Shown: positions 6,501 through 61,758 of the stretch, piece after piece
How positions within the stretch are numbered: position 1 is the stretch's first letter
Layout: each line of letters opens with the position of its first letter
DNA from: Dehalococcoidia bacterium
Lineage (GTDB): Bacteria; Chloroflexota; Dehalococcoidia; Lucifugimonadales; JAGWBF01
Direction: 5' to 3'
NCBI GenBank assembly: GCA_965247055.1
Contig: CBDFGE010000001.1
Location: forward strand, 145,956 to 209,955
DNA: 64,000 nt
Translations under genes and position numbers: made by a program
Notes under the pieces: model-generated
Seen by the model: only the letters and a program-made list of their open reading frames with translations
The model's database searches: none
What the model was told of the DNA's origin: nothing

Positions 6501-7610
6501 TCAGCAAAGGTCCCTCATGACCCAGCCCAGCGCCGGGATCACGGCATCGGTCTCGTGGGGCAACCCCACACTGGCCCGCAGGTAGTCCTTCATTCGAGGC
6601 CCGGACAGCTGACGGAAGAATATTCCCTGCTGGGCGAGGCCCTCGAAGACGGCACCCGCCTTCCCCTCGGGAAACTGGCAGAGGATGAAGTTCGCTCGGG
6701 AGGGCCAGGGAGTTACCCCGGGGATCTCCGCAAGCAGCGAGATCATTCGCTCCCGCTCAGCGACTATGGCGTTCACCCGTTCGATCAGGCCCTCTCGGTC
6801 CTCCAGGGACGCCAGGAGGGCTATTTCAGCCGCCAGGCTCACGTTGTAGGGCGGTTTCACGCTCATCATCACCCTGGCGACGTCCGGGTGCATCACTCCC
6901 AGCCCCATGCGCAGCCCGGCGAGCCCGGCCCATTTGCTGAAGGTGCGGAGGACTATGAGGTTGGGGTACTCCCTCACCAGAGGCAGCACCGTCTCGCTTG
7001 CGAACTCGTGGTAGGTCTCATCCACTACCACCAGTATGCCCATCTCCAGCAGTCGCCGCACCTGCCACTCAGGGGTGATGTTCCCGGTGGGATTATTGGG
7101 TGAGGCGAAAAGCATGGCCTTGGTATGGGAGTCCAGCGCCAGCTCCGTCGCTTCCGTGTCTATGGCAAAGGCCTCGTCCCGGGGCACCTCCACCACCTCT
7201 CCCCCGCAGATGTGCGCGGCGACAGCGTACATACCGAAGGTGGGAGTGGGGTCTATAATCTTCTCTCCGGGGGCCAGGAAGATACGCAGGGTCAGGTCTA
7301 TGATCTCGTCGCTGCCGTTTCCGGCGACGATGTGCTCAGGGCCGATGCCCAGGTACTCCGACAGGGCCCCCCGTAGCCGCCTCTGTTCCGGGTCAGGATA
7401 CAGGTTGTAGGACTTGAAGCCGGCAAGGGCCTCGGCCACCTTAGGGGAAGACCCGAAGGGGTTCTCGTTGCCGTTGAGCCTTATGACCTTCTCCGGGGGA
7501 ATCCCAGCCTTCTCCGCCAGGACCTCCGTGGGGTCCACGCCGTGGTACATGTCGAGGCGGCGAATGTGGGGCTGGATGAGGTCCAGCACATCACCTTCCG
7601 AAAGTTTCAT
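6501..7610 (-). CDS. hisC: histidinol-phosphate aminotransferase
   Basis: 369 aa class-II aminotransferase. LNGNENPFG, NPNNPTG-like SPNNPTGN, and FSKWAGLAGLRMG carrying the PLP lysine. The start overlaps the hisD stop. Confidence 0.93.
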   Translation of the reverse strand: MKLSEGDVLDLIQPHIRRLDMYHGVDPTEVLAEKAGIPPEKVIRLNGNENPFGSSPKVAEALAGFKSYNLYPDPEQRRLRGALSEYLGIGPEHIVAGNGSDEIIDLTLRIFLAPGEKIIDPTPTFGMYAVAAHICGGEVVEVPRDEAFAIDTEATELALDSHTKAMLFASPNNPTGNITPEWQVRRLLEMGILVVVDETYHEFASETVLPLVREYPNLIVLRTFSKWAGLAGLRMGLGVMHPDVARVMMSVKPPYNVSLAAEIALLASLEDREGLIERVNAIVAERERMISLLAEIPGVTPWPSRANFILCQFPEGKAGAVFEGLAQQGIFFRQLSGPRMKDYLRASVGLPHETDAVIPALGWVMRDLC

Positions 7611-8977
7611 ATCTGCTTAACCTCGTGGGGGGCTCCGCCGCCTGCCCGCCTCAGTCCGTCCAGCCGGACCTCCACGGCCCGGGCGTGTCCCGTGAGCCCC
7701 TCGGCTCTCGCGATCACGGCGGCCGCCTCACCCAACTCGCCATACTCCTCGGGCCTCAGCCCCACCACCGGCATAGTCCTCAGGAAATGGTGGACACTCA
7801 GGGCGGAGCTGAACCGGGCCGTGCCCCCGGTGGGCATTACGTGGCTGGGCCCGGCCACGTAATCTCCCATCACCTCGGGGGAGTAGGGGCCCAGGAACAG
7901 ACCACCGGCATGCTTAACCATGCCCGCCCAGCGCCACGGGTCCTGGACCATCATGCACAGGTGCTCGGGTGCGATGGAGTTCGCCAGCTCTATCGCCTCC
8001 TCGACGCTGCCCACCAGGACAACCTTGCCCTGCCTCTCCAGTGACACGCCGGCAAGGTCACCCCGCTCCAGCGAGGCCAGCTGTCTCGCCAGCTCTTCCT
8101 CCACCTCCTCCACCAGAGATGGGGAGGTGGTGACCAGAATGGCCGATGCCATGGGGTCGTGCTCGGCCTGGGCAAGCAGGTCGGCGGCACAGTAGGCGGC
8201 TTTGGCGGTCTCGTCCGCGATCACCACCGTCTCGGTGGGCCCGTACAGGCCATCGATGTCCACCTGGCCATAGACCAGCTTCTTTGCCAGGGTTACGAAC
8301 ACGTTGCCAGGCCCGCAGATCTTGTCCACCTTGGGCACGGTCTCAGTGCCGAAGGCCATCGCCGCAATGGCCTGCACCCCCCCGACCCGGAACACTCGGT
8401 CCACCCCGGCCAGGCGCGCCGCCGCGAGGACGGCAGGCGCCGGTAACTCCCCACCCCGGGGAGGAGACGCCAGGACCACCTCTCTGACCCCCGCGACCCT
8501 GGCGGGGACCGCCGTCATCAGCACCGTGGATGGGTAGGAGGCGCTGCCGCCCGGTGCGTAGATGCCCACCCGCTCCAGGGGTAACACCAGCTCGCCCAGC
8601 CCGGTCGAGAGATCCACCCAGCTCTGGCGCATCGTCTTCCTGTGATATTCCTCGATGCGCCTGGCCGCGAGCTCCAGGGCCTTCACCAGCTGCTCCGGCA
8701 CCTCCCGGCAGGCCTCGTCGATCTGCGCGGCTGAGACCTCCAGCTCCTCCAGCTCCACGCCATCCAGGAGACGGGCGTAATGCCTGACGGCACCGTCGCC
8801 CCTTCGTCTCACATCCTCGAGGATGCGCTCCACCGACTCGCCGGGCGACAGCCGCTCCCCGAACACCTCGACGGTCTTGTCCATCATCTCAGGGGGGATG
8901 GAACTCAGGTCCAGGACATCCGCGCGGGTAAGCGCTTTCCTGGCCTCCTCCAGACCCTTAATCAGCTTCAGGTGCAC
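7607..8977 (-). CDS. hisD: histidinol dehydrogenase
   Basis: 456 aa. GIYAPGGSASYPSTVLM, AQAEHDP and GDYVAGPSHVMPTGGTARF motifs. Confidence 0.95.
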   Translation of the reverse strand: MHLKLIKGLEEARKALTRADVLDLSSIPPEMMDKTVEVFGERLSPGESVERILEDVRRRGDGAVRHYARLLDGVELEELEVSAAQIDEACREVPEQLVKALELAARRIEEYHRKTMRQSWVDLSTGLGELVLPLERVGIYAPGGSASYPSTVLMTAVPARVAGVREVVLASPPRGGELPAPAVLAAARLAGVDRVFRVGGVQAIAAMAFGTETVPKVDKICGPGNVFVTLAKKLVYGQVDIDGLYGPTETVVIADETAKAAYCAADLLAQAEHDPMASAILVTTSPSLVEEVEEELARQLASLERGDLAGVSLERQGKVVLVGSVEEAIELANSIAPEHLCMMVQDPWRWAGMVKHAGGLFLGPYSPEVMGDYVAGPSHVMPTGGTARFSSALSVHHFLRTMPVVGLRPEEYGELGEAAAVIARAEGLTGHARAVEVRLDGLRRAGGGAPHEVKQI

Positions 8978-9720: not shown

Positions 9721-10842
9721 TCAAACCTTCTCCAGGAATTCCAGCAGCCTCTGGTAGGCCTGGCAGCGGTCTTTGAAGAGGTAGCCCACTTGGGAGGAGG
9801 AGATGTCCAGACCTCCGGCTCGACGAAGGTGCTCCACGGCGTCCAGCAGCTTATCTTTGGCCACCACCAGACTCACTGCATACCAGTCGTCCTCGGAGTT
9901 GCCGTACACCCGGGAGATAGTGGGCCCCTGGAGCCCCGCCAGATCGGGTCTGGTGAGGAGGTTGGCGGCCACCATCTCGGGCGATGAGCCTCGCACGTTG
10001 GCGGTGAGGCGGTAGAACGACCCCGCCCGCAGATTGGCCTCCATCAGCTCCAGCATGGCCCGGGCCAGCTCCAGGCCCTGGGAAGAGTCTCGAAGCAGCC
10101 GGCGGTTGCCTATCAGGCAAGCCTGGGATACCAGGATGGTCCCGTCCTCCACCGTCTTGAGTCTGTTCTCCCGGAGGGTGACTCCGCTGGCGGAGAGATC
10201 GGCGATGACGTCGGCGTAGCCGGCCACGGGCGCTGCCTCCAGGGTGCCGCTAGCCTGCACTAGGGTGAAGTGGTGAATCCCCCTGCCATATAGGAACTCC
10301 CCCAGCAGCCGGGGGTACTTGGTAGCGATGCGCAGCTGCTTCCCCTCCTGCCGGAACTCAGCCGCCAGGTCTGCCAGGTCGTCCAGTGAGGACATGTCTA
10401 GCCACGAGTCTGGGATTGCCAGCACAAGCTCGCAATGGCCGAAGCCGAGGTCTTCGATGATGGGAACCACCGGGCTCCCCTCACGCCGGGACTCCAGGAA
10501 CCGGTCAAGTCCGGTAATCCCGAGCTCGGCGCTCCCCTCCTCTACCTTAGAGGTGACGTCGGCGGTGCGTTGAAACAGCACGGTAGCCCCTGGCAAAGTG
10601 GGGATACGGGCGGTGTAGCGGCGGCTGCTGGGCCGGTTCACCGTGATGCCACAGCGGCCCAAGAAGGCCAGCGAAGGCTCGTACAGGTCGCCATCGCTGG
10701 GCAGGACCAGCCGCAGATTCCCCTCCTTCTCTGCCGCCGTGCCCCCGGTCCGGGCTGCCCTGGGCTGCGGGCCCTCGAAGGACACGCCATTCCCGCTGAG
10801 CCCTCCCAAGCCGGCCGCGAATCTGGACGAAGGGTACGTCAT
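9721..10842 (-). CDS. hisG: ATP phosphoribosyltransferase, long form with C-terminal regulatory domain
   Basis: LRLVLPSDGDLYEPSLAFL start region. The C-terminal HisG_C-like segment contains LAGLQGPTISRV. The ~40 aa N-terminal extension may be an artefact: an internal aaggagggg sequence precedes LRLVLPS. Confidence 0.88.
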   Translation of the reverse strand: MTYPSSRFAAGLGGLSGNGVSFEGPQPRAARTGGTAAEKEGNLRLVLPSDGDLYEPSLAFLGRCGITVNRPSSRRYTARIPTLPGATVLFQRTADVTSKVEEGSAELGITGLDRFLESRREGSPVVPIIEDLGFGHCELVLAIPDSWLDMSSLDDLADLAAEFRQEGKQLRIATKYPRLLGEFLYGRGIHHFTLVQASGTLEAAPVAGYADVIADLSASGVTLRENRLKTVEDGTILVSQACLIGNRRLLRDSSQGLELARAMLELMEANLRAGSFYRLTANVRGSSPEMVAANLLTRPDLAGLQGPTISRVYGNSEDDWYAVSLVVAKDKLLDAVEHLRRAGGLDISSSQVGYLFKDRCQAYQRLLEFLEKV

Positions 10843-10852
10843 CGGCGGGCCG

Positions 10853-12322
10853 TTACCTTTCTCTCCGGCTGCCTGAAGGAGCCGCCTGGATCAGGTGACT
10901 GCTGCGCTGCCCATCGGCTTCCACCGTGATTACCTCTGAGATGTTCCTGGCCCGCGCGTACGATAGACTCTCTTCCACGCTCATGCCGCAGACTTCCACC
11001 TCCGCCACCATCCCTTTTTCACGGAGCTCGCCTGCCAGACGCAGCGCCTCTCGGTAAGCTTCGTCACTGGAGGCGGACACCAGAACGGAGCCACCGGCAC
11101 CGTCCAGTCCCCGCTGATTTCCCTGCGCGTCGAGGACCTCCACTATGTGCTCAAGCGTGTAGGCAAAGCCGAGGGCAGGCGTGTTGGAGGGGCCTCCCAA
11201 TGCCCTGGCCAGGCTGTCGTACCTGCCGCCGCCCCCGAGGGAGTGCTCAAGGGACGGGTGGACGATCTCGAACACCGTGCCCGTGTAATAGGCCAAGCCC
11301 CTGGCCAGGCCGAAGTCCAGTACCACAGCCGCACCGTCGGTCTGGGTCAGGTCCAGAATGGCCATCGTTTCCCTCAGCCTATCGAGGACCGAGGTGTCCA
11401 TGCCGGAGGATTCGATGACCTTTCCCGCCTCCGCAAGGGCGGCACCGGGCTCGCCCGCCACGCCGGCCAGATTGTAAGCCATCTCCAGTCCCCTTCTCAG
11501 CCTGTCCGGTTCATCCGTACCTTTGAGCTTGCGAAGCAGGCGCTCCACTACCTGCGAGGGCTGACGCTGGCCCAGCGATCCGACCTCTGCCCACTGGAGC
11601 AGCCCGTGCAGCAGCTCCCGGGACTCCTCCTCCTCCATCCCTCCCAGGGCCACGCTGAGGTAGCTGTGCCGGGGATCGGAGGCCAGCAGCCGAATCTGTA
11701 CCGCTTTCTCCAGCGCCGCGTCCAAGGCACCCTCGCCGGCCTTCAACCCAGTCACGCTACCCAGGATGAACTCCACCGCCCGCTCGGAAAGGGAAAGGGG
11801 CCCCAGAAGCCGGTACAGCACCCCTACGTCCCCTATCGCCAGCTGGTGACCGGTGAGCCCCAGGCCCGACAGCGCCGTGCAGCTCAGGGAGAGGATCTCC
11901 GCATCGGCCCTCGGACCGGCGACGCCCAGGACCTCGGCTCCCATCTGGGTGAACTGGCGGTAGGCTGTAGCATCCTTTTCGTAACGAAAGACCGGGCCCG
12001 CGTACTGGACACGTAACGGCAGCGCCGTCGCCGTCAGACCCTCTTCGAGGAAGTGCCTGATTATTGAGGCGGTATACTCCGGGCGCAGGCTCACGTGGTT
12101 GCCACCGGGATCGGAGAAGGAGTACATCCGTGTGGCTAGCTCACCCCCGGACTTGCGCAGGAACAGCTCCGTGGGCTCGAGCACCGGCGTTTCGAGAACC
12201 TGGTAACCGTAGGAGGAGAAGGTCTCCCTCAACTGGTCGGTGGCGGCCTTCAACGGCCGCCAGGTCGCGGGGGTAAGGTCACGAGTTCCATGGAGGTGCC
12301 GGAGCTTTTCCATATATCCCAA
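10853..12322 (-). CDS. histidyl-tRNA synthetase-like protein (HisS, or a HisZ-type regulatory paralog)
   Basis: 489 aa class-II aaRS. HGTRDLTP, FRYEK..AYRQFTQMGAEVLG, LARGLAYYTG and GGGGRYDSL are present. A C-terminal anticodon-binding-like domain is present. Motif 2 is partly degenerate (see findings). Confidence 0.8.
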   Translation of the reverse strand: MGYMEKLRHLHGTRDLTPATWRPLKAATDQLRETFSSYGYQVLETPVLEPTELFLRKSGGELATRMYSFSDPGGNHVSLRPEYTASIIRHFLEEGLTATALPLRVQYAGPVFRYEKDATAYRQFTQMGAEVLGVAGPRADAEILSLSCTALSGLGLTGHQLAIGDVGVLYRLLGPLSLSERAVEFILGSVTGLKAGEGALDAALEKAVQIRLLASDPRHSYLSVALGGMEEEESRELLHGLLQWAEVGSLGQRQPSQVVERLLRKLKGTDEPDRLRRGLEMAYNLAGVAGEPGAALAEAGKVIESSGMDTSVLDRLRETMAILDLTQTDGAAVVLDFGLARGLAYYTGTVFEIVHPSLEHSLGGGGRYDSLARALGGPSNTPALGFAYTLEHIVEVLDAQGNQRGLDGAGGSVLVSASSDEAYREALRLAGELREKGMVAEVEVCGMSVEESLSYARARNISEVITVEADGQRSSHLIQAAPSGSRRER

Positions 12323-12676: not shown

Positions 12677-14348
12677 ATGTTGTAGGTCTACAATTTTGTC
12701 AGTAGGTAACTGTTCAGGGAAAATGTCAGTTTATGGAAGGACTGACATTGAGTACGAAAGAGCAGAACCGGTTACATATCTTGAACGGAGTATTAGAGCG
12801 GCACTGGACGATGAAGGAGGCGGCCCCGCTGCTTGGAGTAAATGAACGTCAGGGATGGCGAGTGCTGGCGGCCTATCGTAAGGAAGGGGCCAGAGGAGTG
12901 GTGCATAAGAACCGGGGCCGGGTGCCACCCAACGCGACTCCAGAGACCATCCAGCAGCAGGTGGCGAGCCTGGCCCAAGAACGCTACGAGGGGATCAACC
13001 ATACCCATCTGACCGAGTTGCTGGCCGAGCGGGAAGGGGTGATGTTATCCAGGCCCACGCTAAGGCGAATTCTGGTACGGGCCGGATTGACCAGCCCCCG
13101 CCACCGCCGGCCACCACAACATCGGTGTCGCCGACAACGGATGCCTCAGGAGGGGATGCTGCTCCAATTGGACGGGAGCCACCACCTCTGGCTGGAGGAC
13201 CGGGGGCCCTGGCTAACGCTGCTGCTGGCGGTGGACGACGCTACCGGGACGGCACCCTATGCACTATTCCAGGAACAGGAGGATACCCGAGGCTACCTGT
13301 CCCTGCTCCAGGGCATCATTGAACGTCGGGGGGTGCCGATGGCGGTGTACACCGATGGGCATGCCGTCTTTCAGCCACGGCGTCGTCCATCGGACCTATC
13401 CCAGGTTCCCGGGAAAGGACCATCAACCCAATGGAGCCGGGCCCTGGGAGAACTGGGGATCACCCAGATATTGGCCCACAGTCCCGAGGCCAAAGGAAGG
13501 GTGGAGCGAGCCAACGGCACCTTCCAGGACAGGCTGGTGGCGGAACTTCGTCTGGCTGGCGCTTGCACCCTGGCGGAGGCGAATCAAGTGCTGGCCAAGT
13601 TTCTGCCTCGGTTCAACCAGCGCTTCGGGGTGCCTGCGGACCAGGCGGAGTCGGCCTACCGGCCAGTGAACCCGGAGTTGGACCTGGGTGGCGTGCTGTG
13701 CATCAAGGAGTTGCGCAGAGTGGCCAAAGACGACACGGTGCAATACCACGGGCGGGCTTTGCAACTCTTTCCCAGTCTGGAGCGCCCCAGCTATGCCGGG
13801 GCCCGAGTAGAGGTGCAGGAACGTCTGGATGGTCGTCTGCTGGTGCGGCATCGGGAGCAGATTCTGACTCCCCAAGAAGCGCCGGCGCTAGCTACTGAAC
13901 TCCGGGCTCGGGTGACGGCCGGTCCGGTGACAGCGATTCTTCCCGACCCGGATCCGACGGACTGGAGGCCCAAGCAACGTATCAGAGCCCCGGTGCTTCT
14001 AGGACCCCTGGCTGGCGAGACCATCTGGTATGAGGACGCCGCAAGGAAGCAGGTCCACCGGGACCTGGTGGTGGCCGGGATGGAGCGGGCGCGGCAGCAG
14101 GGCAAGCGCATCGGCCGGCCCTCGGTGAATGAACGCCCGAGTTTGAGCAGCGATTCGCCGCGGTGGTGCAGCGCATCGGATCGGGAGAGCTTTCCAGAAA
14201 TCAAGCTGCCAGAGAACTGGGCATCGGCTATGCCACCCTCAAGCGCCTCCTCCAGGCCTGGGAACAGCCCAACGCCAAGCCATCTATTTCACTTTCGGTG
14301 AAACCAAGCAGCGGTAAGGACTACTGACATTTTCGGTGAACAACGACA
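12677..14348 (+). mobile_element. insertion sequence, ISNCY-like (HTH + DDE/integrase-core transposase), about 1.67 kb
   Basis: Flanked by the direct repeat ACAGGG (12671..12676 and 14349..14354). The terminal inverted repeats are imperfect, about 28 bp, and share TGT...TGTCAGTAG. It sits inside an SDR-like ORF. Confidence 0.75.
12733..14301 (+). CDS. IS transposase (ISNCY-family-like) with an N-terminal HTH; the C-terminal tail is probably frameshifted
   Basis: LSTKEQNRLHILNGVLERHWTMKEAAPLLGVNERQGWRVLAAYRKEGARGVVHKNRGR is the typical N-terminus of this transposase class. A DDE-type core follows (LLQLDGSHH...VDDATG...YTDGH). Confidence 0.8.
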   Translation: MEGLTLSTKEQNRLHILNGVLERHWTMKEAAPLLGVNERQGWRVLAAYRKEGARGVVHKNRGRVPPNATPETIQQQVASLAQERYEGINHTHLTELLAEREGVMLSRPTLRRILVRAGLTSPRHRRPPQHRCRRQRMPQEGMLLQLDGSHHLWLEDRGPWLTLLLAVDDATGTAPYALFQEQEDTRGYLSLLQGIIERRGVPMAVYTDGHAVFQPRRRPSDLSQVPGKGPSTQWSRALGELGITQILAHSPEAKGRVERANGTFQDRLVAELRLAGACTLAEANQVLAKFLPRFNQRFGVPADQAESAYRPVNPELDLGGVLCIKELRRVAKDDTVQYHGRALQLFPSLERPSYAGARVEVQERLDGRLLVRHREQILTPQEAPALATELRARVTAGPVTAILPDPDPTDWRPKQRIRAPVLLGPLAGETIWYEDAARKQVHRDLVVAGMERARQQGKRIGRPSVNERPSLSSDSPRWCSASDRESFPEIKLPENWASAMPPSSASSRPGNSPTPSHLFHFR

Positions 14349-18359: not shown

Positions 18360-18795
18360 TCGGGGAGTGAGGCAGGCCTGTAAGCCGGGTTCTGTGTCCC
18401 CATGGTCGAAGCATCGACGCCCGTAGGCGCGATCACCCGCCCTTTGGGAGCGGTGACCATCTCTCTAGGCCCGCCGTTGCCGACGGACTCAAGCGGCCAA
18501 CCCGGGGACGGGCCAGGCACCCATAGTCCCCCTATTTGGCCTTGCTCCAGGTGGGGTTTAGCCACCGCCGTGTCACCACGGCCGGCCGGACGCTCTTACC
18601 GTCCGTTTTCAACCTTACCGCGCCGGCCCGAAGGCCGCCGTGGCGGTGTGGTTTCTGTGCCACTTTCCGTCCCCCGGATGATGTATCCCACCATCCGGGG
18701 GCCTGGGCGTTACCCAGCACCCTGCCCGGTGGAGCCCGGACTTTCCTCTCCCCCGACCTTGCGGGGCAGCGGTCACCCGGCCTGCCCTATCCCAA
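18360..18795 (-). ncRNA. rnpB: RNase P RNA, bacterial type A
   Basis: On the minus strand the universal P4 strands are both present: GAGGAAAGUCCGGGCUCC (reverse complement of 18731..18748) and ACAGAACCCGGCUUAC (reverse complement of 18380..18395). P1 pairs GGCAGGCC with GGCCUGCC at the two ends. No convincing CDS lies in this 570-nt gap. Confidence 0.88.
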
Positions 18796-19656: not shown

Positions 19657-21867
19657 ATGATAAAATCTGTCTGGAGTCGCCTGGCGAGGGGCAAATTGTT
19701 GCTTCGGATACTTAACACCCTGACCAAAAGGGTTGAAGAGGTCTCTACCCTGGAGCCGGGGGTCGCGCGGATGTACACCTGTGGCCCCACCGTATACAGG
19801 TATGCCCATATCGGGAACCTGCGCACATACCTCATGGCCGACTGGCTCAGAAGGGTGCTGGAATGCGGCGGCTACGAGGTGGTCCACGTCAAGAACATCA
19901 CCGACGTAGGCCACATGCGTATGGAGATGCTGGAGTCCGGCGGCGACAAGGTGGTCACCGCTGCCCTCGCGGAGGGCAAGACACCCCAGGAGATCGCACA
20001 GTACTACACCAGCGCCTTTCACCGCGATGAAGAAAGGCTCAATATTCTTCCGGCCCACCATCACCCCCGGGCCACCGGACACATACACGAAATGATCGCG
20101 ATGATTGAGCGGCTTTTCGAGAAGGGCTACGCGTACCAGTCTGGAGGCAACGTTTACTTCGACGTTAGCAAGTTTGCCGACTACGGCAAGCTGTCCGGCA
20201 ACCTCCAGCAGGGCCTAATGGAGGGGGTACGGGCGGAGGTGGACCCCCTCAAGAGAAGCCCACGGGACTTCACCCTCTGGAAAGCGGCGGAACCTGGCCG
20301 CGACATGAAGTGGGACAGCCCATGGGGAGAAGGATTCCCGGGGTGGCACATCGAGTGCTCCGCTATGTCCACCAGGTACATGGGGGAGCAGCTGGACATA
20401 CACACCGGCGGAGTGGACAACATCTTCCCCCATCACGAAGATGAGATAGCCCAGAGCGAGGCGGCCTTCGGCAAACCCTTCGTTCGCTACTGGCTCCACG
20501 GCCAGCACCTTCTGGCCGATGGGGTCAAAATGGCGAAGTCCGCCAGAAACGAGTTCATTCTGGCCGACCTGGAACAGCGGGGGTTCGACCCCCTGTCATT
20601 CCGGTATCTTTGCCTCACCACAAGGTACCGGCACAGGATGAACTTCACCTTTTTGGCCCTGCGAGCCGCCGAGACGGCCCTCACCAGCCTGCGGGACCGG
20701 GTGTGGGAGTGGCGGAACGCACCCGCTATCGACGAGCTTCCGGAGGAGTCCCACGGGTGGCAGGAGCGATTTACCGAAGCCGTGCACGCAGACCTTGATA
20801 TGCCCAGGGCCCTCGCCATTACCTGGGATATGGTCCGCTCTCCCATCCCCGGCAGGGCCAAACTTCAGCTGCTCCTGGGATTCGACCGCATCCTCGGGCT
20901 GGGACTGGACAGGGTTTCAGACCGTTACGAGTTACCCCACCATATCCAGTCCAGCATCGGCGAGAGGGAAGAGCTCCGGGCCCGAGCGCAGTACGAGAGG
21001 GCGGATGGGATGCGGTCCGCCATATCGGCCAGCGGCTACCTGGTCGGGGACACCTGTCAAAGCACCAGGGTCCGCCCCAAGACGGAGCTGGAGAAACGGC
21101 AGGACCGCTGGCAGGAGGTATCCTCCTCCAGGGAAGTGGAATCGCACCTGGACCTGCCTCCAGAGCTGGACTTCTCCGTGGTCGTGACGGCCAGCAACTA
21201 CCTGGACGACGTGGTGCGCTGCACCGAGACCGCCTTGAAGTGGGCCGGGGGGCATTCCACCGAGCTGATAGTGGTGGACAATGGCTCCAGCGACGGCACA
21301 TCGGAATGGCTGGAGGCGCTACACGAAAGGGACCCCAGAGCCAGGGTCATCCACTGCGACCACATCCTCGGCGAGGCGGCGGCAAGGAATATCGGCCTCA
21401 AACAGAGCCTGGGCCGGACCGTGTTAATACTTGATACCTCGGTGGAGGTGGCGGGAGATGTGCTCGGGCCTATCGGGCGCTGGCTTGAAGACGACACCGT
21501 GGGTATCATCGGCCCCTGGGGGCTCAGGACCACCGACCTCCGCCACTTCCACGAGGAGGTCGGGGATGGGGACGCGGACGCCATCCAGGCGTACTGTATG
21601 GCCTTTCGTCGTGCCCACATCAAGCAGGTAGGGCTGATGAGAGAGACGTTCCGCTTCTATCGCAACCTCGACCTCGACTACAGCTTCCAGTTCAAGGCCC
21701 AAGGATACCGAACGGTGGCCGACGGCACCCTGCCGTTAAGCCGCCACGAACACCGGCAGTGGGCTGCTCTCGGTGAGGCCGAGCGGGACCAGCTAAGCGC
21801 GAAGAACTTCAAGCGTTTCCTTAAGACGTGGGGCGACAGGGCCGACTTGCTCTTATCCAGGACGTAG
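19657..21867 (+). CDS. cysS: cysteine--tRNA ligase-type enzyme fused to a C-terminal GT2 glycosyltransferase domain
   Basis: The CysRS motifs are MYTCGPTVYRYAHIGN, PGWHIECS, FPHHEDEIAQSEA and KMAKS, plus a C-terminal helical region. From about nt 21170 the GT-A motifs are FSVVVTASNY, VVDNGSSDGT and LILDTSVEV. The real start may be TTG 19696/19699, which would give (L)LRILNTLTK. Confidence 0.85.
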   Translation: MIKSVWSRLARGKLLLRILNTLTKRVEEVSTLEPGVARMYTCGPTVYRYAHIGNLRTYLMADWLRRVLECGGYEVVHVKNITDVGHMRMEMLESGGDKVVTAALAEGKTPQEIAQYYTSAFHRDEERLNILPAHHHPRATGHIHEMIAMIERLFEKGYAYQSGGNVYFDVSKFADYGKLSGNLQQGLMEGVRAEVDPLKRSPRDFTLWKAAEPGRDMKWDSPWGEGFPGWHIECSAMSTRYMGEQLDIHTGGVDNIFPHHEDEIAQSEAAFGKPFVRYWLHGQHLLADGVKMAKSARNEFILADLEQRGFDPLSFRYLCLTTRYRHRMNFTFLALRAAETALTSLRDRVWEWRNAPAIDELPEESHGWQERFTEAVHADLDMPRALAITWDMVRSPIPGRAKLQLLLGFDRILGLGLDRVSDRYELPHHIQSSIGEREELRARAQYERADGMRSAISASGYLVGDTCQSTRVRPKTELEKRQDRWQEVSSSREVESHLDLPPELDFSVVVTASNYLDDVVRCTETALKWAGGHSTELIVVDNGSSDGTSEWLEALHERDPRARVIHCDHILGEAAARNIGLKQSLGRTVLILDTSVEVAGDVLGPIGRWLEDDTVGIIGPWGLRTTDLRHFHEEVGDGDADAIQAYCMAFRRAHIKQVGLMRETFRFYRNLDLDYSFQFKAQGYRTVADGTLPLSRHEHRQWAALGEAERDQLSAKNFKRFLKTWGDRADLLLSRT

Positions 21868-22068
21868 GGACGAAGCTCCCGGCCCCATCGAGATTGCCTC
21901 TGGACAGCCCCAGACCTCTGCCCGCCCCGGTGCGGGCCGCCGCCTGAAAGGGGTCCGTGCACGGAGCGTTACGCGGGAGTGGCCCAGGGCTGGAGGAAAC
22001 CTTGAGGAGCATGCCGGAGCGGTGACCAGCCTTGAACGAGCAGTTCAGCTTTCGGAGGTTTTAGCGGC

Positions 22069-22779
22069 ATGAGTGAGGAAGAACCCTACCGGCGTGGCAT
22101 GGTGGTTGTGGCCCACGCCGACGACGCCGAGTACGGGTGCTCGGCCACCGTGGCGAAATGGTGCAGGGAAGGCATGGTGGTGGTCTACGTCATCTGCACC
22201 GATGGCAGCAAGGGAAGCAGCGACCCGGACATGACTCTGGGGAGGCTGGTGGAGATACGTCGCGAGGAGCAGCTTGCGGCGGCCAAGGTGCTGGGGGTCA
22301 AGGAGGTGGTGTTTCTGGGCTACGAGGACTCCATGCTCCAGCCAACCCTTGAGCTGAGGCGTGACATCGCACGGGAGATCAGGAAGCACAGGCCCGATGT
22401 CCTGATATGTCCCAGCCCCATCAGAAACCTGCGTGGCACCCACTACATAGGACACCCCGACCATCTGGCTGTGGGGGAGGCCGCCCTGTCCGCGGTCTTC
22501 CCCACAGCCAGGGACAGGCTCACCTTCTCGGAGCTGCTGGAAGAGGGACTGGAGCCCCATAAGGTGCGCGAAGTGCTGGTAATAGGCGACCCCGAGCCGG
22601 ACAAGTGGATCGATGTCTCGGATACCGTAGAGATCGCCATAGAGGCGCTGAAGCAGCACGTGTCCCAGGTCGGGGACGGCGAGGACGGCTACACCTGGAT
22701 GAGAGAGCGAAGGCGCATCGCAGGGCAGCACCACGGCATGAAGTACGCCGAGACCTTCAACCATTTCCATTTCAGTTAG
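22069..22779 (+). CDS. PIG-L / LmbE family N-acetylglucosaminyl deacetylase
   Basis: 236 aa. VVVAHADDAEYGCSATV, TDGSKGS and HPDHLAVGEA are the family zinc-site motifs. Confidence 0.85.
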   Translation: MSEEEPYRRGMVVVAHADDAEYGCSATVAKWCREGMVVVYVICTDGSKGSSDPDMTLGRLVEIRREEQLAAAKVLGVKEVVFLGYEDSMLQPTLELRRDIAREIRKHRPDVLICPSPIRNLRGTHYIGHPDHLAVGEAALSAVFPTARDRLTFSELLEEGLEPHKVREVLVIGDPEPDKWIDVSDTVEIAIEALKQHVSQVGDGEDGYTWMRERRRIAGQHHGMKYAETFNHFHFS

Positions 22780-22803: not shown

Positions 22804-23811
22804 ATGGCTTCAGACACTTCCACCACCGTGGAACCCTATGTCTACGTCGGGGCGGGCACCGGGGGTCTGTACCGCAAGGCACCGGGGTCGGAGGACTGGG
22901 AAGAGCTTACCAACGGGCTTCCGACGTCCCCGGAGGTACATGCTCTCGGAATCCATCCCCTACAGCCCGGGGTGGTGTTCGCCGGCACTCAGGACGGCCT
23001 CTATCGGAGCGGCAGCCGCGGCGACCACTGGAGACGGCTGAACATGCCGGTCACAGGCAGCGTCGTCTGGTCGCTGCTCTTCCGGCCCCATAGACCCAGC
23101 GTGATGTATGTGGGCATGGCTCCTGCCCAGATCTTTCGCACCTGGGATGGAGGCGATTCCTGGGAGTCCCTTCCTTTTTACCCCGGAGCCGACACCGTCA
23201 CCATGTCCTTCGAGACCCGCGTCATTGCCATGGCAGTGAGCCCGAGCAACCCCGACGAGATGTACTCGGCCCTTGAGGTCGGTGGGGTGATGCGTAGCCT
23301 GGACGGCGGTGAGACGTGGGAGCCCATCAACAAGGGGCTGGCCGAGGGAGGGGAGGACCGGCTGGACCTCCATGGGGTGCAGATCAGCCCGGCCCAGCCG
23401 GACACCGCCTACATCAGCACCCGGCAGGGCATGTTCCGGGGTCCCGACCGAGGCAGCCGGTGGGAGTTCATCGACCTGGCGAGCTATTCTCCCATCGGTT
23501 ACACGCGCGACCTGCTTCTATCGCCCTCTGATCCCAAGACCCTATACGTGTCCCTCGGCAGGGCGGCCCGAAGCGATGCGGGGGCGCTTTTCCGCAGCCG
23601 TGACCTGGGAAAGACGTGGGAGCGTGCGGACCATGGCGTCACGCCGCGGAGCACCATGATGGCGGTAGCGGTCAACGCGCGGCGGTCCTCCCAGGTGTTC
23701 TGCGCCACCCGCGACGGCCAGGTCTTCGGCTCACTGGACGACGGCGCCACCTGGAAGGAGTACCGGCTACCCGAGGCGGCCACAGAGGTCTACGCCCTGG
23801 CGGTGGCATGA
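22804..23811 (+). CDS. BNR/Asp-box repeat beta-propeller protein (sialidase / Ycf48-like fold)
   Basis: Six or seven repeats of the S/x-x-D-x-G-x-T/S-W type: WDGGDSWES, SLDGGETWEP, SRDLGKTWER, SLDDGATWKE. Confidence 0.7.
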   Translation: MASDTSTTVEPYVYVGAGTGGLYRKAPGSEDWEELTNGLPTSPEVHALGIHPLQPGVVFAGTQDGLYRSGSRGDHWRRLNMPVTGSVVWSLLFRPHRPSVMYVGMAPAQIFRTWDGGDSWESLPFYPGADTVTMSFETRVIAMAVSPSNPDEMYSALEVGGVMRSLDGGETWEPINKGLAEGGEDRLDLHGVQISPAQPDTAYISTRQGMFRGPDRGSRWEFIDLASYSPIGYTRDLLLSPSDPKTLYVSLGRAARSDAGALFRSRDLGKTWERADHGVTPRSTMMAVAVNARRSSQVFCATRDGQVFGSLDDGATWKEYRLPEAATEVYALAVA

Positions 23812-34403: not shown

Positions 34404-35762
34404 AGTAGAGTCCCAGGAAGTGGTGTAACAAGAGGAGAGGGTCTGGATGAAGAGAGACCACCACGTCATCCTTAGCGGGCAAAGACGAGCCTGAGAAAGG
34501 AGGACAACGGTGGTCAAGGAAAGGATGGACCTGCTTGAGCTAATGCGCAAGACGGTGACGTGGACTTTCTACGAGAGGCACTGAGAGTGCTGGTCGAGGA
34601 GATCATGGAGGCTGATGTGTCATCGAGGACCGGTGCTGGGTATGGAGAACGCAACCCTGAGCGGGTGACCCAGCGCAACGGGTACCGGTCTCGAGCATGG
34701 GACACTCGCGTAGGGACCATGGAGTTGCAGATACCCAAGCTCAGAGAGGGAAGCTACTTTCCGAGCCTGCTGGAGCCACGGCGTCGCAGCGAGCGAGCTC
34801 TGCTGGCGGTGATCCAGCAGGCGTATGTGGAGGGTGTATCGACGAGGCGAGTGGATGATCTGGTCAAGGCTCTTGGGTGCGAGGGTATCTCAAAGAGCCA
34901 AGTGTCGCGTATCTGCCAGGAGCTGGACGGGGTGGTGGAGAGCTTCCTAGGTCGGCCGCTGGACGGCGGATCATATCCCTACCTGTGGCTGGACGCACTA
35001 ACCCAGAAGGTCAGAGAGGCCGGTAGGATAGTCAACGTCAGCGTGGTGGTGGCGACGGCGGTCAATAGCGAGGGCAAGCGTGAGATCGTTGGGATGGACG
35101 TGGGTACCAGTGAAGACGGCGCCTTCTGGCTGGCCTTCCTGCGCTCACTGGTCGCCAGGGGCCTCGGCGGGGTGGAACTGGTGGTATCGGACGCTCATCA
35201 GGGACTCAGGGATGCCATCGCAACTGTCTTCGGTGGGGCCAGTTGGCAGCGGTGCCGCACCCACTTCATGACCAACCTGCTCACTCGGGTCCCCAGGAGT
35301 GCTCAGCCCTGGGTGGCCACCATGGTACGCACCATCTACCAGCAGCCGTCCCCTCAGGAGGTGCATGCCCAACTCGAGCGGGTGATTGCTCAGCTCCAGG
35401 ACCCGTTCCCACAGGGCGCCTCTCGACTGGACGAGGCTGGACCCGACGTCCTGGCCTTCTCCAGCTTCCCCGTCGCCCACTGGAAGAAGATCTGGTCCAA
35501 CAACCCCCTGGAGCGTCTCAACAAGGAGATACGGCGCCGCACCGATGTGGTGGGCATCTTCCCTAACCGCCCAGCTGTCCGTCGCCTGGTCGGCGCCGTC
35601 CTAGCTGAGCAGCACGACGAGTGGGCCGTCGGCCGTCGATACATGACACAGGAGGTAACCACCTCCAACGAAGCTCTACCCAGAGCCGAACTCGCAGAGG
35701 CAGCGGCCTAGACGATATCAACAGGATGACGTACTCTTACACCACTCTATGGGACGGGACCT
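34404..35762 (+). mobile_element. IS256-family insertion sequence (about 1.36 kb)
   Basis: Direct repeat CTGGATA at 34397..34403 and 35763..35769. The imperfect terminal IRs share GTCCCA-N4-AGTGGTGTAA (34410..34428 versus the reverse complement of 35737..35755). It contains a Mutator-type transposase. Confidence 0.8.
34560..35711 (+). CDS. IS256-family (Mutator-type) transposase
   Basis: RNGYRSRAWDTRVGTMELQIPKLREGSYFPSLLEPRRRSERAL, YLWLDA, VSDAHQGL, WQRCRTHF and NPLERLNKEIRRR are canonical IS256 transposase motifs. Confidence 0.9.
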   Translation: MDFLREALRVLVEEIMEADVSSRTGAGYGERNPERVTQRNGYRSRAWDTRVGTMELQIPKLREGSYFPSLLEPRRRSERALLAVIQQAYVEGVSTRRVDDLVKALGCEGISKSQVSRICQELDGVVESFLGRPLDGGSYPYLWLDALTQKVREAGRIVNVSVVVATAVNSEGKREIVGMDVGTSEDGAFWLAFLRSLVARGLGGVELVVSDAHQGLRDAIATVFGGASWQRCRTHFMTNLLTRVPRSAQPWVATMVRTIYQQPSPQEVHAQLERVIAQLQDPFPQGASRLDEAGPDVLAFSSFPVAHWKKIWSNNPLERLNKEIRRRTDVVGIFPNRPAVRRLVGAVLAEQHDEWAVGRRYMTQEVTTSNEALPRAELAEAAA

Positions 35763-49381: not shown

Positions 49382-50098
49382 ATGCGCCAAACGCCCAAGA
49401 GGGTCCTCGTGGTGACCCCGCATCCGGACGACGCAGAAGGCGGCTGCGGAGGCACGGTCGCCAGGTGGATCGGCGAGGGGGCGGAAGTCGTCTATGTCTT
49501 ATGTACCAATGGGGACAAAGGTACCACCGACCGCGAGATCGCCCCGGAGAGGCTGGCGGCCGTCCGGGAAGGAGAGCAGCGGGAGGCGGCCCGGGTCCTG
49601 GGCGTGAAAGGTGTGGTGTTCCTCCGTCATCCCGACGGGGGACTGGAGGACTGCCGCCAGCTGCGCGGCCAGATAGTCCGAGAGATACGCCACCACCGCC
49701 CCGAGGTGGTGATGTGTAATGATCCCGACAGGAGCCGGAGCCACTCCCACCGGGACCACCGTGTCTGCGGGCAGGTCACTATCGACGCCGTCTGCACCTA
49801 CTCGTGGCGCCGGCTCTATTTTCCCGAGCATTTCGTCGATGAAGGCCTGCAACCTCACGTGGTAAAGGAGATCTACCTCTGGGGAACCGACGCGCCGGAC
49901 ACCTTCGTCGATATAAGCGCGACCCTGGAGCAAAAGGTGCTAACGCTGAGCAAGCACGCGAGCCAGTTCCCCGACCCCGACAGGCCGGCAAAGAGCGTGC
50001 GGGACCACGCCAGGCAGGTCGGCGAACAGGCGGGTCTGGGCTCCGCAGAGGCCTTCCGGGTGGTCCCCTTCGCACCGGACCCGCTCCTCGTGGGCTGA
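49382..50098 (+). CDS. PIG-L / LmbE family deacetylase (second copy)
   Basis: VLVVTPHPDDAEGGCGGTV, TNGDKGT and HRDHRVCG motifs. The start is set at ATG 49382, behind gagaggag. Confidence 0.85.
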   Translation: MRQTPKRVLVVTPHPDDAEGGCGGTVARWIGEGAEVVYVLCTNGDKGTTDREIAPERLAAVREGEQREAARVLGVKGVVFLRHPDGGLEDCRQLRGQIVREIRHHRPEVVMCNDPDRSRSHSHRDHRVCGQVTIDAVCTYSWRRLYFPEHFVDEGLQPHVVKEIYLWGTDAPDTFVDISATLEQKVLTLSKHASQFPDPDRPAKSVRDHARQVGEQAGLGSAEAFRVVPFAPDPLLVG

Positions 50099-53374: not shown

Positions 53375-53451
53375 GGGCCCGTAGCTCAGATGGTTAGAGC
53401 GCGGTCCTGATAAGACCGAGGCCGATAGTTCGAGTCTATCCGGGCCCACCA
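53375..53451 (+). tRNA. tRNA-Ile (anticodon GAU), CCA encoded
   Basis: The cloverleaf was folded by hand. Acceptor GGGCCCG/CGGGCCC, D stem GCTC/GAGC, anticodon stem CGGTC/GACCG with loop CTGATAA, T stem GATAG/CTATC with loop TTCGAGT. Confidence 0.93.
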
Positions 53452-59844: not shown

Positions 59845-60045
59845 ATACGTAACGAAGTTGTCACCAACCCGAGCCTCTGCGAGAGGTTCACGAAGCGGTT
59901 GTCGCGCACCTTCGAAAGGCTGCCCATCCGGTAATTCGACCCTGCGCCTGCCCCATTTGAAGCCAGTGAGCGCCTGCCACCCTCCCGCACCGACCCTGAC
60001 ATGTGAAGGTTGCCGCCGTCGCCTCTCCTTCATTACGCTCAACAC

Positions 60046-61758
60046 ATGGCCCTGTCAGACCGACAGTTACTTGACTCCCTCAGCAGGATGCCCTTCATCG
60101 ACTCGGCGGAGCTGGCGCTCGTTCTCGGCGAGCCGCACGCCACAGTCCACCGCGCCCTGACCAGCCTGCTGGCCGACGGCATCGCCGGGAGGGTCAGCCA
60201 CGGCACCGTGCACCTGCCTTCGAGCCAGCGATACCACCTGACGGCCAACGGCATCGGCGAAGCGGCCGGGATTCTCGACTTCAAGACGCCCTCGGACTTC
60301 GTGCGGGCCTACCCCGTTTCCAGGGAGTGGCTGGCGCTGCTCATCCGCCGCATGGACGCGGTGGCCTCCGTCTATCGTCTCGCTGCCGCGCTCTCCCCAG
60401 GCATCGGCTCCCACCGGTCACACGTGGAGTTCCACCGCAGGGGCCGCTTCGACGCCACCATCACCCTCCACGACGGGCGCAGCTTCGGCGTGGTCCGCCA
60501 GGGTCTGGCACTGAGGCGTCGTTCCCTCTACGACCGCCTGCGGGCCGTAGCGGAGTATGACTACACGCGCCGCCCCGACACCGTTCTAATCCTTGTGCCC
60601 AGCGTCTGGGAGGAGAGACTGACGGGGAGGTTCTGCGAGCGCAACTATCTCAGGGATTCCTACATCGCCGTGGAGTCCAGGGAGGTTCTCGAAAGACGGG
60701 ACCGGCGCGTCTGGCAGCGAACCACGGGGCTGTTCGGGAGCACGTACCACACTCTCGATTTTGTGAGTTCACAGGGCGGCACCGGCGGAGCGCTTCATAC
60801 GGAGTCGCCGGAGCGGAAGCGGGCCTTGATACCCAATCCTGAGCGGATGGTGCAGGCTGCGCCGACCTTCGGGGTCAGCCCTTCGGAGAAGCGGATTCTC
60901 GACATGGTGACGGACCACCCGATGATGCCCCGTGACCACCTTGCGTGCTGGCTTGGTGTTTCGGAAGGGCGGATCAGCCAGATGATGCACAGCCTCGTCG
61001 ATACATGGGGCCTGATCGAGCGCCGGGGAAAACGCGGAGACACTCGCTACACGTTGTCCGCTGAAGGCATTCGCTACGTCACCCACAGGGACCGCGCCCA
61101 GCTTTCCACGACGCAGGGTATATGGAGCACGGCCCTCACCACCGACAAACAGGGCCGCAGGCGTCACGTGGGCCACCGCATCGAGACGTGGGCGCGTCAG
61201 ACGAAGCACGCAGACGGCATCACGTGGTTCCTCTCGAAGCTTCAGTCTGAGGCCAGGGCCGACCCTGACAGCGAGCTGCTGTGGTCGGTTCCAACCGCGA
61301 GATCCGACCGGGCCTACAACTGGGGTCAGTCGGCCATCGCCCCAGACGCCGTGGGGAAGATGGTCGCAGAGGGCCTTGAGATACCGTTCTACCTGGAGTA
61401 CGAGCTTCGCACCCGTCACCCCGAAGGAGTCATTGCCCGCCTGAGTCCCTACACGCGCTACTACTGGTCCACCGAGCCGGGCGAAGACCAGCCCCCGTTC
61501 CCCACCACGCTGTTCGTCGTCGACACCGAGGAGGTCGAGGACACCTACGTCCGCACCGCCGCCCTGAGGAGCCGGATGTCGCTGCCCATCCTCGTGTCGT
61601 GCATCCCCATGCTGTCCACCGCAGGAATACTCGGAAAGTCATGGCGTCCACTCTGGGAACCGGACTCACCGAGACTGCCTCTGTCCCGGCTGAGCGCCTA
61701 CCAGTGGGACAGTCTCTACCACCGGATGCGTCAGCGTCCTGTAGGGGGGAATAGGTAG
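60046..61758 (+). CDS. two-module winged-helix / replication-relaxation-like protein
   Basis: Two wHTH-like segments: LALVLGEPHATVHRALTSLLADG and LACWLGVSEGRISQMMHSLVDTWGLIER. The second is followed by APDAVG...FYLEYELRT, reminiscent of the Replic_Relax family. Confidence 0.55.
   Translation: MALSDRQLLDSLSRMPFIDSAELALVLGEPHATVHRALTSLLADGIAGRVSHGTVHLPSSQRYHLTANGIGEAAGILDFKTPSDFVRAYPVSREWLALLIRRMDAVASVYRLAAALSPGIGSHRSHVEFHRRGRFDATITLHDGRSFGVVRQGLALRRRSLYDRLRAVAEYDYTRRPDTVLILVPSVWEERLTGRFCERNYLRDSYIAVESREVLERRDRRVWQRTTGLFGSTYHTLDFVSSQGGTGGALHTESPERKRALIPNPERMVQAAPTFGVSPSEKRILDMVTDHPMMPRDHLACWLGVSEGRISQMMHSLVDTWGLIERRGKRGDTRYTLSAEGIRYVTHRDRAQLSTTQGIWSTALTTDKQGRRRHVGHRIETWARQTKHADGITWFLSKLQSEARADPDSELLWSVPTARSDRAYNWGQSAIAPDAVGKMVAEGLEIPFYLEYELRTRHPEGVIARLSPYTRYYWSTEPGEDQPPFPTTLFVVDTEEVEDTYVRTAALRSRMSLPILVSCIPMLSTAGILGKSWRPLWEPDSPRLPLSRLSAYQWDSLYHRMRQRPVGGNR

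Follow-up and report, generated by a model that had tools for sequence, protein, structure and literature searches.

Why should a cysteinyl-tRNA synthetase (CysRS) share one polypeptide with a glycosyltransferase of the GT2 family, and why should a PIG-L/LmbE-type deacetylase gene follow close behind? The question is raised by a 64,000-nucleotide (nt) stretch of DNA from a Dehalococcoidia bacterium (GenBank assembly GCA_965247055.1, contig CBDFGE010000001.1, positions 145,956 to 209,955 of the forward strand; hereafter, at its full length, the window), which has a GC content of ~64% and carries a fusion gene, here called cysS-GT2, with an open reading frame (ORF) of 736 amino acids (aa). An earlier annotation made from the DNA letters alone (hereafter the sequence-only reading) saw in these enzymes the logic of mycothiol synthesis and proposed a pathway to a cysteine-bearing glycoside. 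The comparisons described below lead elsewhere. The GT2 domain goes together with the last domain of CysRS, the anticodon-binding domain CysS_C, in what appears from its sequences to be an unnamed and previously undescribed family, CysS_C-GT2, whose main form is a stand-alone protein of ~300 aa. We propose, at a probability of roughly 45%, that these proteins are glycosyltransferases guided by the anticodon of tRNA(Cys) and acting, most simply, on its anticodon stem-loop.

The fusion gene and the CysS_C-GT2 family

The fusion gene has the following parts, the basis for each being given in brackets.

19657..21867 (+): fusion gene cysS-GT2, 736-aa ORF (ORF list, Pfam, NCBIfam)
19699..20916 (+): CysRS catalytic core, CP domain, stem-contact fold and helical bundle, aa 15-420 (TIGR00435, PDB and fold matches)
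20917..21081 (+): CysS_C anticodon-binding alpha/beta domain, aa 421-475 (cysS model, profile alignment)
21082..21165 (+): conserved linker RPKT..E...SS..EV.S, aa 476-503 (conservation; ordered, with an AlphaFold2 (AF2) pLDDT of 86-88)
21166..21867 (+): GT-A/GT2 glycosyltransferase domain, aa 504-736 (PF00535, AF2, GT-A fold matches)

That one ORF joins a CysRS-type module to a GT2 domain was rightly recognised in the sequence-only reading: Pfam places a tRNA-synt_1e domain at aa 30-338 (E 1e-99) and a Glycos_transf_2 domain at aa 507-629 (E 8.5e-19; 68.5 bits vs a gathering threshold of 23.3), and all the motifs then quoted are present (MYTCGPTVY, HIGN, WHIECS, FPHHEDE, KMAKS, FSVVVTASNY at aa 506 or nt ~21172, VVDNGSSDGT and ILDTSVEV). 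The true start is probably the TTG at 19699, which gives 722 aa, as a 99% identical homolog (P0001) is called at 722 aa from this codon, with which the cysS model also starts and which a GAGGGG element directly precedes. Past CysRS the protein runs on for ~260 C-terminal residues, the linker and the GT-A domain, an extension found in no characterised CysRS. The two modules have CysS_C in common, which is at once the last domain of the synthetase and the first domain of the GT2 family unit.

That unit has a life of its own. A search with the GT2 domain alone returned, besides fragments of fusions, proteins of ~293-324 aa that are 40-47% identical across the whole domain, and Pfam places CysS_C (PF23493, cysteinyl-tRNA ligase anticodon binding domain) at the N-termini of these ~300-aa proteins. 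A profile search of 1.84 billion cluster representatives gave 1134 matches at E <= 1e-30; among the best 150 of them, which were classified, 77 are non-giant representatives with a full GT2 match, comprising 55 stand-alone CysS_C+GT2 proteins, nine CysRS fusions and a remainder considered further below. Residues 421-736 of the window protein align end to end with stand-alone members (33-46% identity), and the layout of the family is CysS_C, a ~30-aa linker, a GT2 domain with lDxSxE, FRFYR..D.D and (R)H.H, and a C-terminal helix (consensus KRNFYRF...R.DLL in stand-alone members). The stand-alone genes, which come from Actinomycetota, Ktedonobacteria (e.g., Ktedonospora formicarum, WP_220194942.1) and other Chloroflexota, are independent genes and not split cysS genes. 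A housekeeping CysRS with an unrelated fused domain, which the sequence-only reading had entertained as an alternative, is contradicted by this finding, since the GT2 family is itself built on the CysRS anticodon-binding domain.

NCBIfam holds no model for CysS_C-GT2 (the top match, MftF, stays far below its cutoff), and the literature searched yielded no relevant paper on CysS_C-GT2, fusions of aminoacyl-tRNA synthetases (aaRSs) with glycosyltransferases, SAR202 cysS, Chloroflexi thiols or bacterial tRNA glycosyltransferases. With no curated family and no paper found, the earlier statement that no described pathway has such an architecture stands. The architecture is common in nature yet unnamed and unstudied, its themes, aaRS fusions and tRNA modification guided by anticodon domains, being known ones, and CysS_C-GT2 could represent a new enzyme class.

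A CysS_C profile made from 34 stand-alone N-terminal domains and searched against the PDB matches five CysRS structures and nothing else, in each case at the C-terminus (E 9e-12 to 7e-7), where it aligns to residues 413-460 of E. coli CysRS (1li5/1u0b). The anticodon contacts in CysRS are made by Arg427, which hydrogen-bonds O6 of G34, Trp432, Asp436 and Arg439, as given in a 2026 engineering paper based on 1U0B (PMC13449415). In 60 stand-alone representatives drawn from different 50%-identity clusters, the position of Arg427 is R in 58/58, that of Trp432 aromatic in 57/57, that of Asp436 D in 58/58 and that of Arg439 R or K in 55/58; the corresponding figures for ~130 fusions are R in 125/125, Y or F in 129/130, D in 130/130 and R in 128/130, the window domain having kept R, Y, D and R. 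Because the invariant positions of CysS_C are charged or aromatic surface residues while those of the hydrophobic core vary, a conserved ligand can be argued for over mere folding.

The synthetase module and its links to GT2

The N-terminal module is a bona fide CysRS and not an MshC-type ligase, and the window gene very likely encodes a canonical-type, full-length enzyme. In an NCBIfam scan the cysS equivalog TIGR00435 scores 415.3 bits (cutoff 340), with aa 16-473 matched to model positions 1-464 of 466, so the module is complete including its anticodon-binding end, as the sequence-only reading had supposed; the MshC model TIGR03447 reaches 220.1 bits vs its cutoff of 485.1, and the MshC architecture (~410 aa, a CysRS core without the anticodon-binding domain) differs from that of the window module, which keeps this domain. 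Solved CysRS structures in the PDB match the module at E 1e-75 to 3e-94. The motifs HIGN, KMAKS, TCGP, GWHIECS and HTGG..FPHHEDE are intact in it and invariant in 52 fusions, and we take the pocket motifs to correspond to C28, C209, H234 and E238 of the E. coli enzyme. For an AF2 model of the full-length fusion (pLDDT 84, pTM 0.77) the top PDB match in Foldseek is 1u0b_B, the E. coli CysRS-tRNACys complex (target-normalised TM 0.84 over all 461 target residues, root-mean-square deviation 3.6 Å, 485 columns), and MshC structures rank below it. In a neighbour-joining tree the fusion modules cluster with full-length CysRS genes (~49% identity), at a distance from truncated MshC-like paralogs (~36%), a placement with the synthetases rather than with the MshC type that the sequence-only reading had favoured. 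The N-terminal 460-470 aa make up a complete CysRS of the TIGR00435/PRK14536 type (PDB 1U0B), down to the equivalents of R427, W432 (here Y), D436 and R439. No second cysS was detected in the 64-kb window by tblastn.

How widespread the fusion is was addressed with a scan of GTDB, at one genome per species, which gave 542 relatives; locus counts are taken from the best 80 of these 542 loci, all from Dehalococcoidia, SAR202 or Chloroflexota and many on complete chromosomes. The CysRS core lies in frame directly upstream of GT2 in 80/80 loci, and no second cysS was found within 10 kb in any of the 80, the one exception among the loci searched by tblastn being a truncated MshC-like paralog in another fusion locus (L160). 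More than 120 protein clusters (63-99% identity) have the CysRS+GT2 architecture; the named ones are annotated only as 'cysteine--tRNA ligase' and derive from metagenome-assembled genomes of Dehalococcoidia/Chloroflexota, and diverged fusions occur in Roseiflexaceae, SAR202 and Candidatus Dormibacteria.

The stand-alone genes, too, can be tied to CysRS. Among the 80 loci of a metagenome scan seeded with stand-alone proteins, those of the clade nearest P0270 have a full-length cysS placed tail-to-tail directly after the stand-alone gene in 15 of the 21 cases with enough downstream sequence, an arrangement seen in 0/32 cases in other stand-alone clades. The adjacent cysS genes carry a CysS_C of their own, and the tree places them within the CysRS modules of the fusions. 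GT2 and CysRS are accordingly linked in three independent ways, by a shared domain, by fusion and by gene adjacency.

One fusion lineage, represented by three distinct intact ORFs of 745-747 aa (P0285, P0413 and P0414) on contigs of up to 724 kb, looks like a natural pseudo-synthetase that no longer has HIGH, KMSKS or the Zn/Cys pocket residues: in its core AHIGN has become VDINQ, GWHIECS SPDIECL, HTGG LTGA and KMAKS KMATR. Its cysS score is 235 vs the cutoff of 340, yet it is aligned over model positions 1-457, and neither the contact residues of CysS_C nor any of the GT2 motifs have been lost. The retention of a dead core before GT2 argues that the synthetase body is kept for something other than Cys activation; the lineage is hard to reconcile with Cys ligation and easy to reconcile with presentation of tRNA(Cys).

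Possible acceptors of the glycosyltransferase

With a mean column conservation of 0.75, vs 0.66 in the helical/anticodon region of the same proteins, the GT2 domain is under strong purifying selection. Its invariant motifs are DNGSxDG, DH..G....N, lDxSxE (a variant DXD), FRFYRNLDxD and RHEHR, with the D-x-D of FRFYRNLDLD and the His of RHEHR among the conserved features, and its C-terminal helix, NFxRF...W..R.DLL (KRNFYRF in stand-alone members), has an invariant N and conserved R and F. An AF2 model of CysS_C, linker and GT2 (pLDDT 94.6, pTM 0.86) forms one rigid body and matches GT-A enzymes with probability 1.0, the nearest being ppGalNAc-transferases, WrtF and small bacterial GT2s; searches for characterised relatives by sequence profile and fold gave only generic GT-A matches.

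In the reading that we prefer, CysS_C would dock the anticodon (GCA) of tRNA(Cys) and bring the active site of GT2, which is rigidly joined to it, next to the anticodon stem-loop; with a nucleotide-sugar as donor, GT2 would there glycosylate either a nucleoside of tRNA(Cys) or something that this tRNA carries. The anticodon face of the fusion must stay free for aminoacylation, which would leave GT2 alongside the anticodon stem-loop while the latter is bound. CysS_C-GT2 has merged with cysS, through the shared domain, in Dehalococcoidia/SAR202, Roseiflexaceae and Dormibacteria. PIG-L, if functionally linked, would imply a GlcNAc donor and subsequent de-N-acetylation, as a step outside the conserved core. 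A bolder version, which we put forward as a doubtful though conceivable one, would make these proteins the first bacterial RNA glycosyltransferases, with CysS_C reading GCA and the GT-A domain adding a sugar to the tRNA(Cys) anticodon stem-loop, perhaps GlcNAc, from which PIG-L would remove the acetyl group in some lineages, and with the writer built into the synthetase of the fusion lineages, in one of which the synthetase would have become a pure tRNA-binding scaffold. The stand-alone genes have no universal operon partner, only clade-specific neighbours (cNMP-binding, ECF sigma/ZAS, PIG-L, rhomboid, FtsH, cysS and M3 peptidase genes), which fits tRNA-modifying enzymes, for which this is typical. 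Glycosylation of a tRNA or an aminoacyl product had been the second alternative in the sequence-only reading, and it is the one that the evidence seems to favour.

Synthetase modules are re-used for tRNA modification in GluQRS (YadB) and are fused to an enzyme linked to the cognate tRNA in LysX (LysRS-MprF). GluQRS keeps the catalytic core and has no anticodon-binding domain; stand-alone CysS_C-GT2 does the reverse, retaining only the anticodon-binding domain, to which a catalytic fold of another kind is joined. Specificity for isoacceptors in an anticodon-loop modification is provided by a synthetase-type anticodon-binding domain without synthetase activity in DALRD3, which guides METTL2 to tRNA-Arg (PMC7237682). 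That protein, however, is eukaryotic, has the DALR domain of ArgRS and acts in trans as a separate subunit with a methyltransferase partner, whereas here a bacterial CysS_C is covalently joined to a glycosyltransferase and the function is predicted. The animal RNA glycosyltransferases QTGAL and QTMAN, which add galactose or mannose to queuosine-34 (PMC12518689), depend on nucleotide-sugars and modify a nucleoside in the anticodon of particular tRNAs, which shows that ordinary GT folds can glycosylate tRNA. Unlike the proteins described here they are not bacterial and have no reported aaRS-derived domain, and their target is Q34 of tRNA-Tyr and tRNA-Asp, tRNA-Cys (GCA) having no Q; the likeness drawn here is one of predicted function.

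Downstream of the fusion gene, the order in the window is as follows.

21868..22068 (+): intergenic gap of 201 nt with no recognisable terminator or promoter consensus
22069..22779 (+): PIG-L/LmbE-family deacetylase, 236 aa (Pfam, 109 bits)
22804..23811 (+): BNR/Asp-box protein (sortilin-Vps10-like, F510_1955 glycosylhydrolase-like), 25 nt 3' of PIG-L

The deacetylase gene thus lies where the sequence-only reading saw it, ~200 nt downstream and on the same strand, and its product, which matches PF02585 at E 2.6e-31 and has the motifs AHADDAE and HPDH in its translation, scores 97 with BshB1 (cutoff 182.5), 65 with BshB2 (195), 32 with MshB (224) and 61 with Mca (277). Homologs of it occur within 10 kb in 12/80 fusion loci, immediately downstream in 11 of the 12, and all 12 loci belong to the window's closest relatives (CysRS core identity at least 73%). 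Conservation in relatives, a check that had been named beforehand, holds for the fusion, in 80/80 loci, and fails for synteny with PIG-L, in 12/80, so the MshA/B/C-style triad is a local feature of one subclade. PIG-L is a lineage-specific neighbour that may or may not act jointly with GT2; the BNR/Asp-box gene, which accompanies it in 6/80 loci, is context and stands outside the conserved unit.

Chloroflexota/Dehalococcoidia also have a large family of ~390-aa truncated CysRS paralogs (P0446-P0565; loci L175-L177), which have no anticodon-binding region. They cover cysS model positions 5-375 only, score 336 bits with the MshC model (cutoff 485), and are labelled in databases as cysS or, at JGI, with the MshC reaction. 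The truncated paralog of L160 (19365-20492, minus strand) lies 10 kb from a CysRS-GT2 fusion, and no glycosyltransferase or PIG-L partner was found in the contexts of the truncated paralogs. Such a paralog is a candidate tRNA-independent Cys ligase and, if these lineages make a Cys-conjugated thiol, would be a more natural ligase than the fusion; the pathway prediction is to be corrected to that extent.

Several observations weigh against tRNA(Cys) as the acceptor. The presumed proximity of GT2 to the anticodon loop is deduced from domain order and general tRNA geometry. The R/aromatic/D/R set is also a hallmark of the domain family, so that its conservation could be partly structural. The DXD position reads D-T-S followed by the invariant E of lDxSxE, which is atypical, catalysis being assumed. 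With a median net charge of -6 and a pI of ~5.6, the acidic GT2 domain has no global RNA-binding surface, and its charge lends no support to RNA binding. CysS_C is not detectable in 13 of the 77 classified representatives, several of which visibly start inside the domain and are probably truncated gene calls, and is apparently missing from one fusion lineage (P0402). In none of 120 loci was a tRNA-Cys gene found nearby, and to our knowledge no glycosylated nucleoside has been reported in bacterial tRNA(Cys). Some neighbours of stand-alone genes also point elsewhere, being a better fit to small-molecule chemistry: a non-orthologous PIG-L 1-4 kb downstream together with an ECF sigma/zf-HC2 anti-sigma pair in an Actinomycetota clade (5 loci), a gamma-glutamyltranspeptidase upstream in a Ktedonobacteria-like contig, and, in two Chloroflexota loci (L092 and L093), opposite-strand genes of Glrx-like, DsbD_TM and thioredoxin-like type at 0.5-3 kb upstream, with a gene of the MST/DinB_2 (mycothiol-S-transferase) family overlapping the GT2 gene by 4 nt, as follows.

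7498-8004: MST/DinB_2 gene (L092; also in L093)
8001-8969: stand-alone CysS_C-GT2 gene, downstream of the preceding one

These thiol-redox and PIG-L neighbours are a weak residual signal for thiol or GlcNAc chemistry, and keep models of cysteine or thiol chemistry alive, possibly by way of Cys-tRNA(Cys).

The model first drawn from the window, in which the GlcNAc-glycoside produced by GT2 is deacetylated by PIG-L and the fused CysRS, in the manner of MshC, joins Cys to the freed amine, takes its appeal from the setting. MshC is a CysRS paralog, and a glycosyltransferase, a PIG-L/LmbE deacetylase and a CysRS-fold enzyme lie within 3.2 kb, recalling mycothiol (MshA/B/C) and bacillithiol (BshA/B/C) synthesis; PIG-L follows the fusion gene directly both in the window and in 11 close relatives, and the Actinomycetota PIG-L, the MST/DinB_2 gene, the ZAS anti-sigma/ECF sigma pairs and the thioredoxin-like and gamma-glutamyltranspeptidase neighbours would all suit it. 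Yet we judge it very improbable. The transferase is GT-A/GT2, not GT4, and neither a GT4 nor a bshC-like gene was found in the window, nor, in a scan of the window's 20 larger ORFs, a GT4 or an mshD-like gene; the Cys enzyme, a true CysRS that keeps its anticodon-binding domain, fails the MshC model and stands far from the truncated paralogs; PIG-L fails the MshB and BshB models and is missing from 68/80 fusion loci, the trio being conserved only in the window's close relatives. Most members of the family, moreover, have no Cys-activating module and one fusion lineage keeps GT2 behind a dead one, a Cys ligase of the tRNA-independent type is, where present (L160), a separate truncated paralog, and the anticodon-binding domain of GT2 is left unexplained. 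A tRNA-dependent small-molecule route would account for that domain, for the CysRS linkage and for the recurrent thiol-redox/PIG-L neighbours: CysS_C would recruit Cys-tRNA(Cys) and the GT-A domain act on its aminoacyl moiety, giving a cysteinyl-glycoside without an MshC/BshC-type ligase, either by S- or N-glycosylation of cysteine or through capture of the activated cysteine by an amino-sugar (one generated by PIG-L). It has parallels in LysX, where an aaRS is fused to an enzyme consuming its aminoacyl-tRNA, and in SunS, as GT2-family S-glycosyltransferases of cysteine exist. What makes this route distinctly unlikely is that GT2, rigid beside the anticodon-binding domain, would by general tRNA geometry lie ~65-75 Å from the aminoacylated 3' end, that the pseudo-CysRS lineage cannot itself make Cys-tRNA, though another CysRS could supply it, and that PIG-L is not conserved with the family; we also know of no GT-A enzyme that uses aminoacyl-tRNA.

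A third view gives up tRNA as acceptor in favour of an envelope glycan, a protein or a metabolite, CysS_C then being a structural or regulatory appendage (coupling activity, for example, to the abundance of tRNA(Cys) or CysRS) or the remnant of an old fusion, and the window protein a housekeeping CysRS with a passenger enzyme. We hold this to be somewhat unlikely. The structural neighbours (ppGalNAc-Ts, WrtF and small GT2s) are peptide or glycan GT-A enzymes, the acidity of the domain and the members without detectable CysS_C fit, stand-alone genes of Ktedonobacteria have MurJ, LytR_cpsA_psr and a sugar-1-phosphate nucleotidyltransferase nearby, and aaRS anticodon-binding domains can be recruited to non-tRNA roles, as in the Pol gamma accessory subunit; on the other side are the essentially invariant anticodon-contact surface across deep stand-alone lineages with a varying core, the three kinds of CysRS linkage, the catalytically dead but full-length CysRS body kept before GT2, and a family of ~300-aa proteins in which no signal peptide or membrane segments are evident. 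We give hardly any credence to a chance or degenerating fusion, or to an artefact of assembly or gene calling, in which GT2 would be inactive: the atypical DXD (DxS) would agree with it, but it is effectively refuted by 80/80 loci and more than 120 clusters in three phylum- or class-level lineages, and the conservation of 0.75 with many invariant residues and the confident AF2 models speak against it as well.

If tRNA(Cys)-anticodon-guided glycosylation is borne out, CysS_C-GT2 would be a new class of bacterial tRNA-modifying enzyme, in which an anticodon reader taken over from a synthetase directs a glycosyltransferase to a single tRNA, and an as yet unseen sugar modification would exist on tRNA(Cys) in abundant environmental lineages, among them SAR202 and other Dehalococcoidia, soil Actinomycetota and Ktedonobacteria, with charging and modification of tRNA(Cys) on one polypeptide in the fusion lineages. 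Whatever the acceptor, a conserved two-domain family lies concealed in hundreds of entries that bear only the name 'cysteine--tRNA ligase' or 'glycosyltransferase family 2 protein', and the clean Rosetta-stone link between CysRS and a GT-A enzyme stands, as does the natural pseudo-synthetase variant.

Neighbourhoods of stand-alone genes and the rest of the window

In one Actinomycetota clade of stand-alone genes (L005, L146, L151, L153, L159, L165, L171 and L172) a tRNA-Met(CAT) gene recurs, mostly ~0.6-2 kb upstream of the GT2 gene (~9 kb in L151), and is followed by cNMP-binding and alpha/beta-hydrolase genes, often with ECF sigma, zf-HC2 anti-sigma and PIG-L genes downstream. The recurring tRNA-Met(CAT) was considered as a tRNA link and set aside as what looks like clade synteny. 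In Ktedonobacteria (L090, 8671-12942, and the contig of P0242) the stand-alone gene has a ManC-like sugar-1-phosphate nucleotidyltransferase gene on one side (joined in one contig by the gamma-glutamyltranspeptidase) and an M3 oligoendopeptidase gene on the other, and the MurJ and LytR_cpsA_psr genes already mentioned are close by.

Besides the deacetylase gene that follows the fusion, the window has a second PIG-L/LmbE paralog at ~49397-50095 (+), between phosphofructokinase and acetamidase/formamidase genes; its product is 41% identical to that of 22069-22779, which makes PIG-L a multi-copy family in this genome. Upstream of the fusion gene and divergent from it lies a class A RNase P RNA (18365-18788, minus strand; 253 bits), flanked by a PHP-domain gene and a CT398-like zinc-ribbon gene. 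The remaining housekeeping content comprises pur and his genes, hisZ, AspRS, gatCA and 2-oxoacid dehydrogenases, and transposase-type genes occur within the housekeeping operons at 12733-14301 (+; IS481-like HTH/LZ domains) and 34560-35711 (+; Mutator family). Between ~52000 and 60000 the GC content is 0.58-0.61, vs ~0.64-0.66 before, the drop coming directly after tRNA-Ile(GAT) at 53375-53451; the low-GC region, which includes the ORF at 60010-61758 and encodes DUF4352/DUF5067 and Replic_Relax/MarR_2 proteins, may be an integrated mobile element. A HisRS-like paralog at 10853-12322 (-) stands beside hisG at 9721-10842 (-), the typical arrangement of the HisZ regulatory subunit, and is another aaRS-derived non-synthetase protein in the same window.

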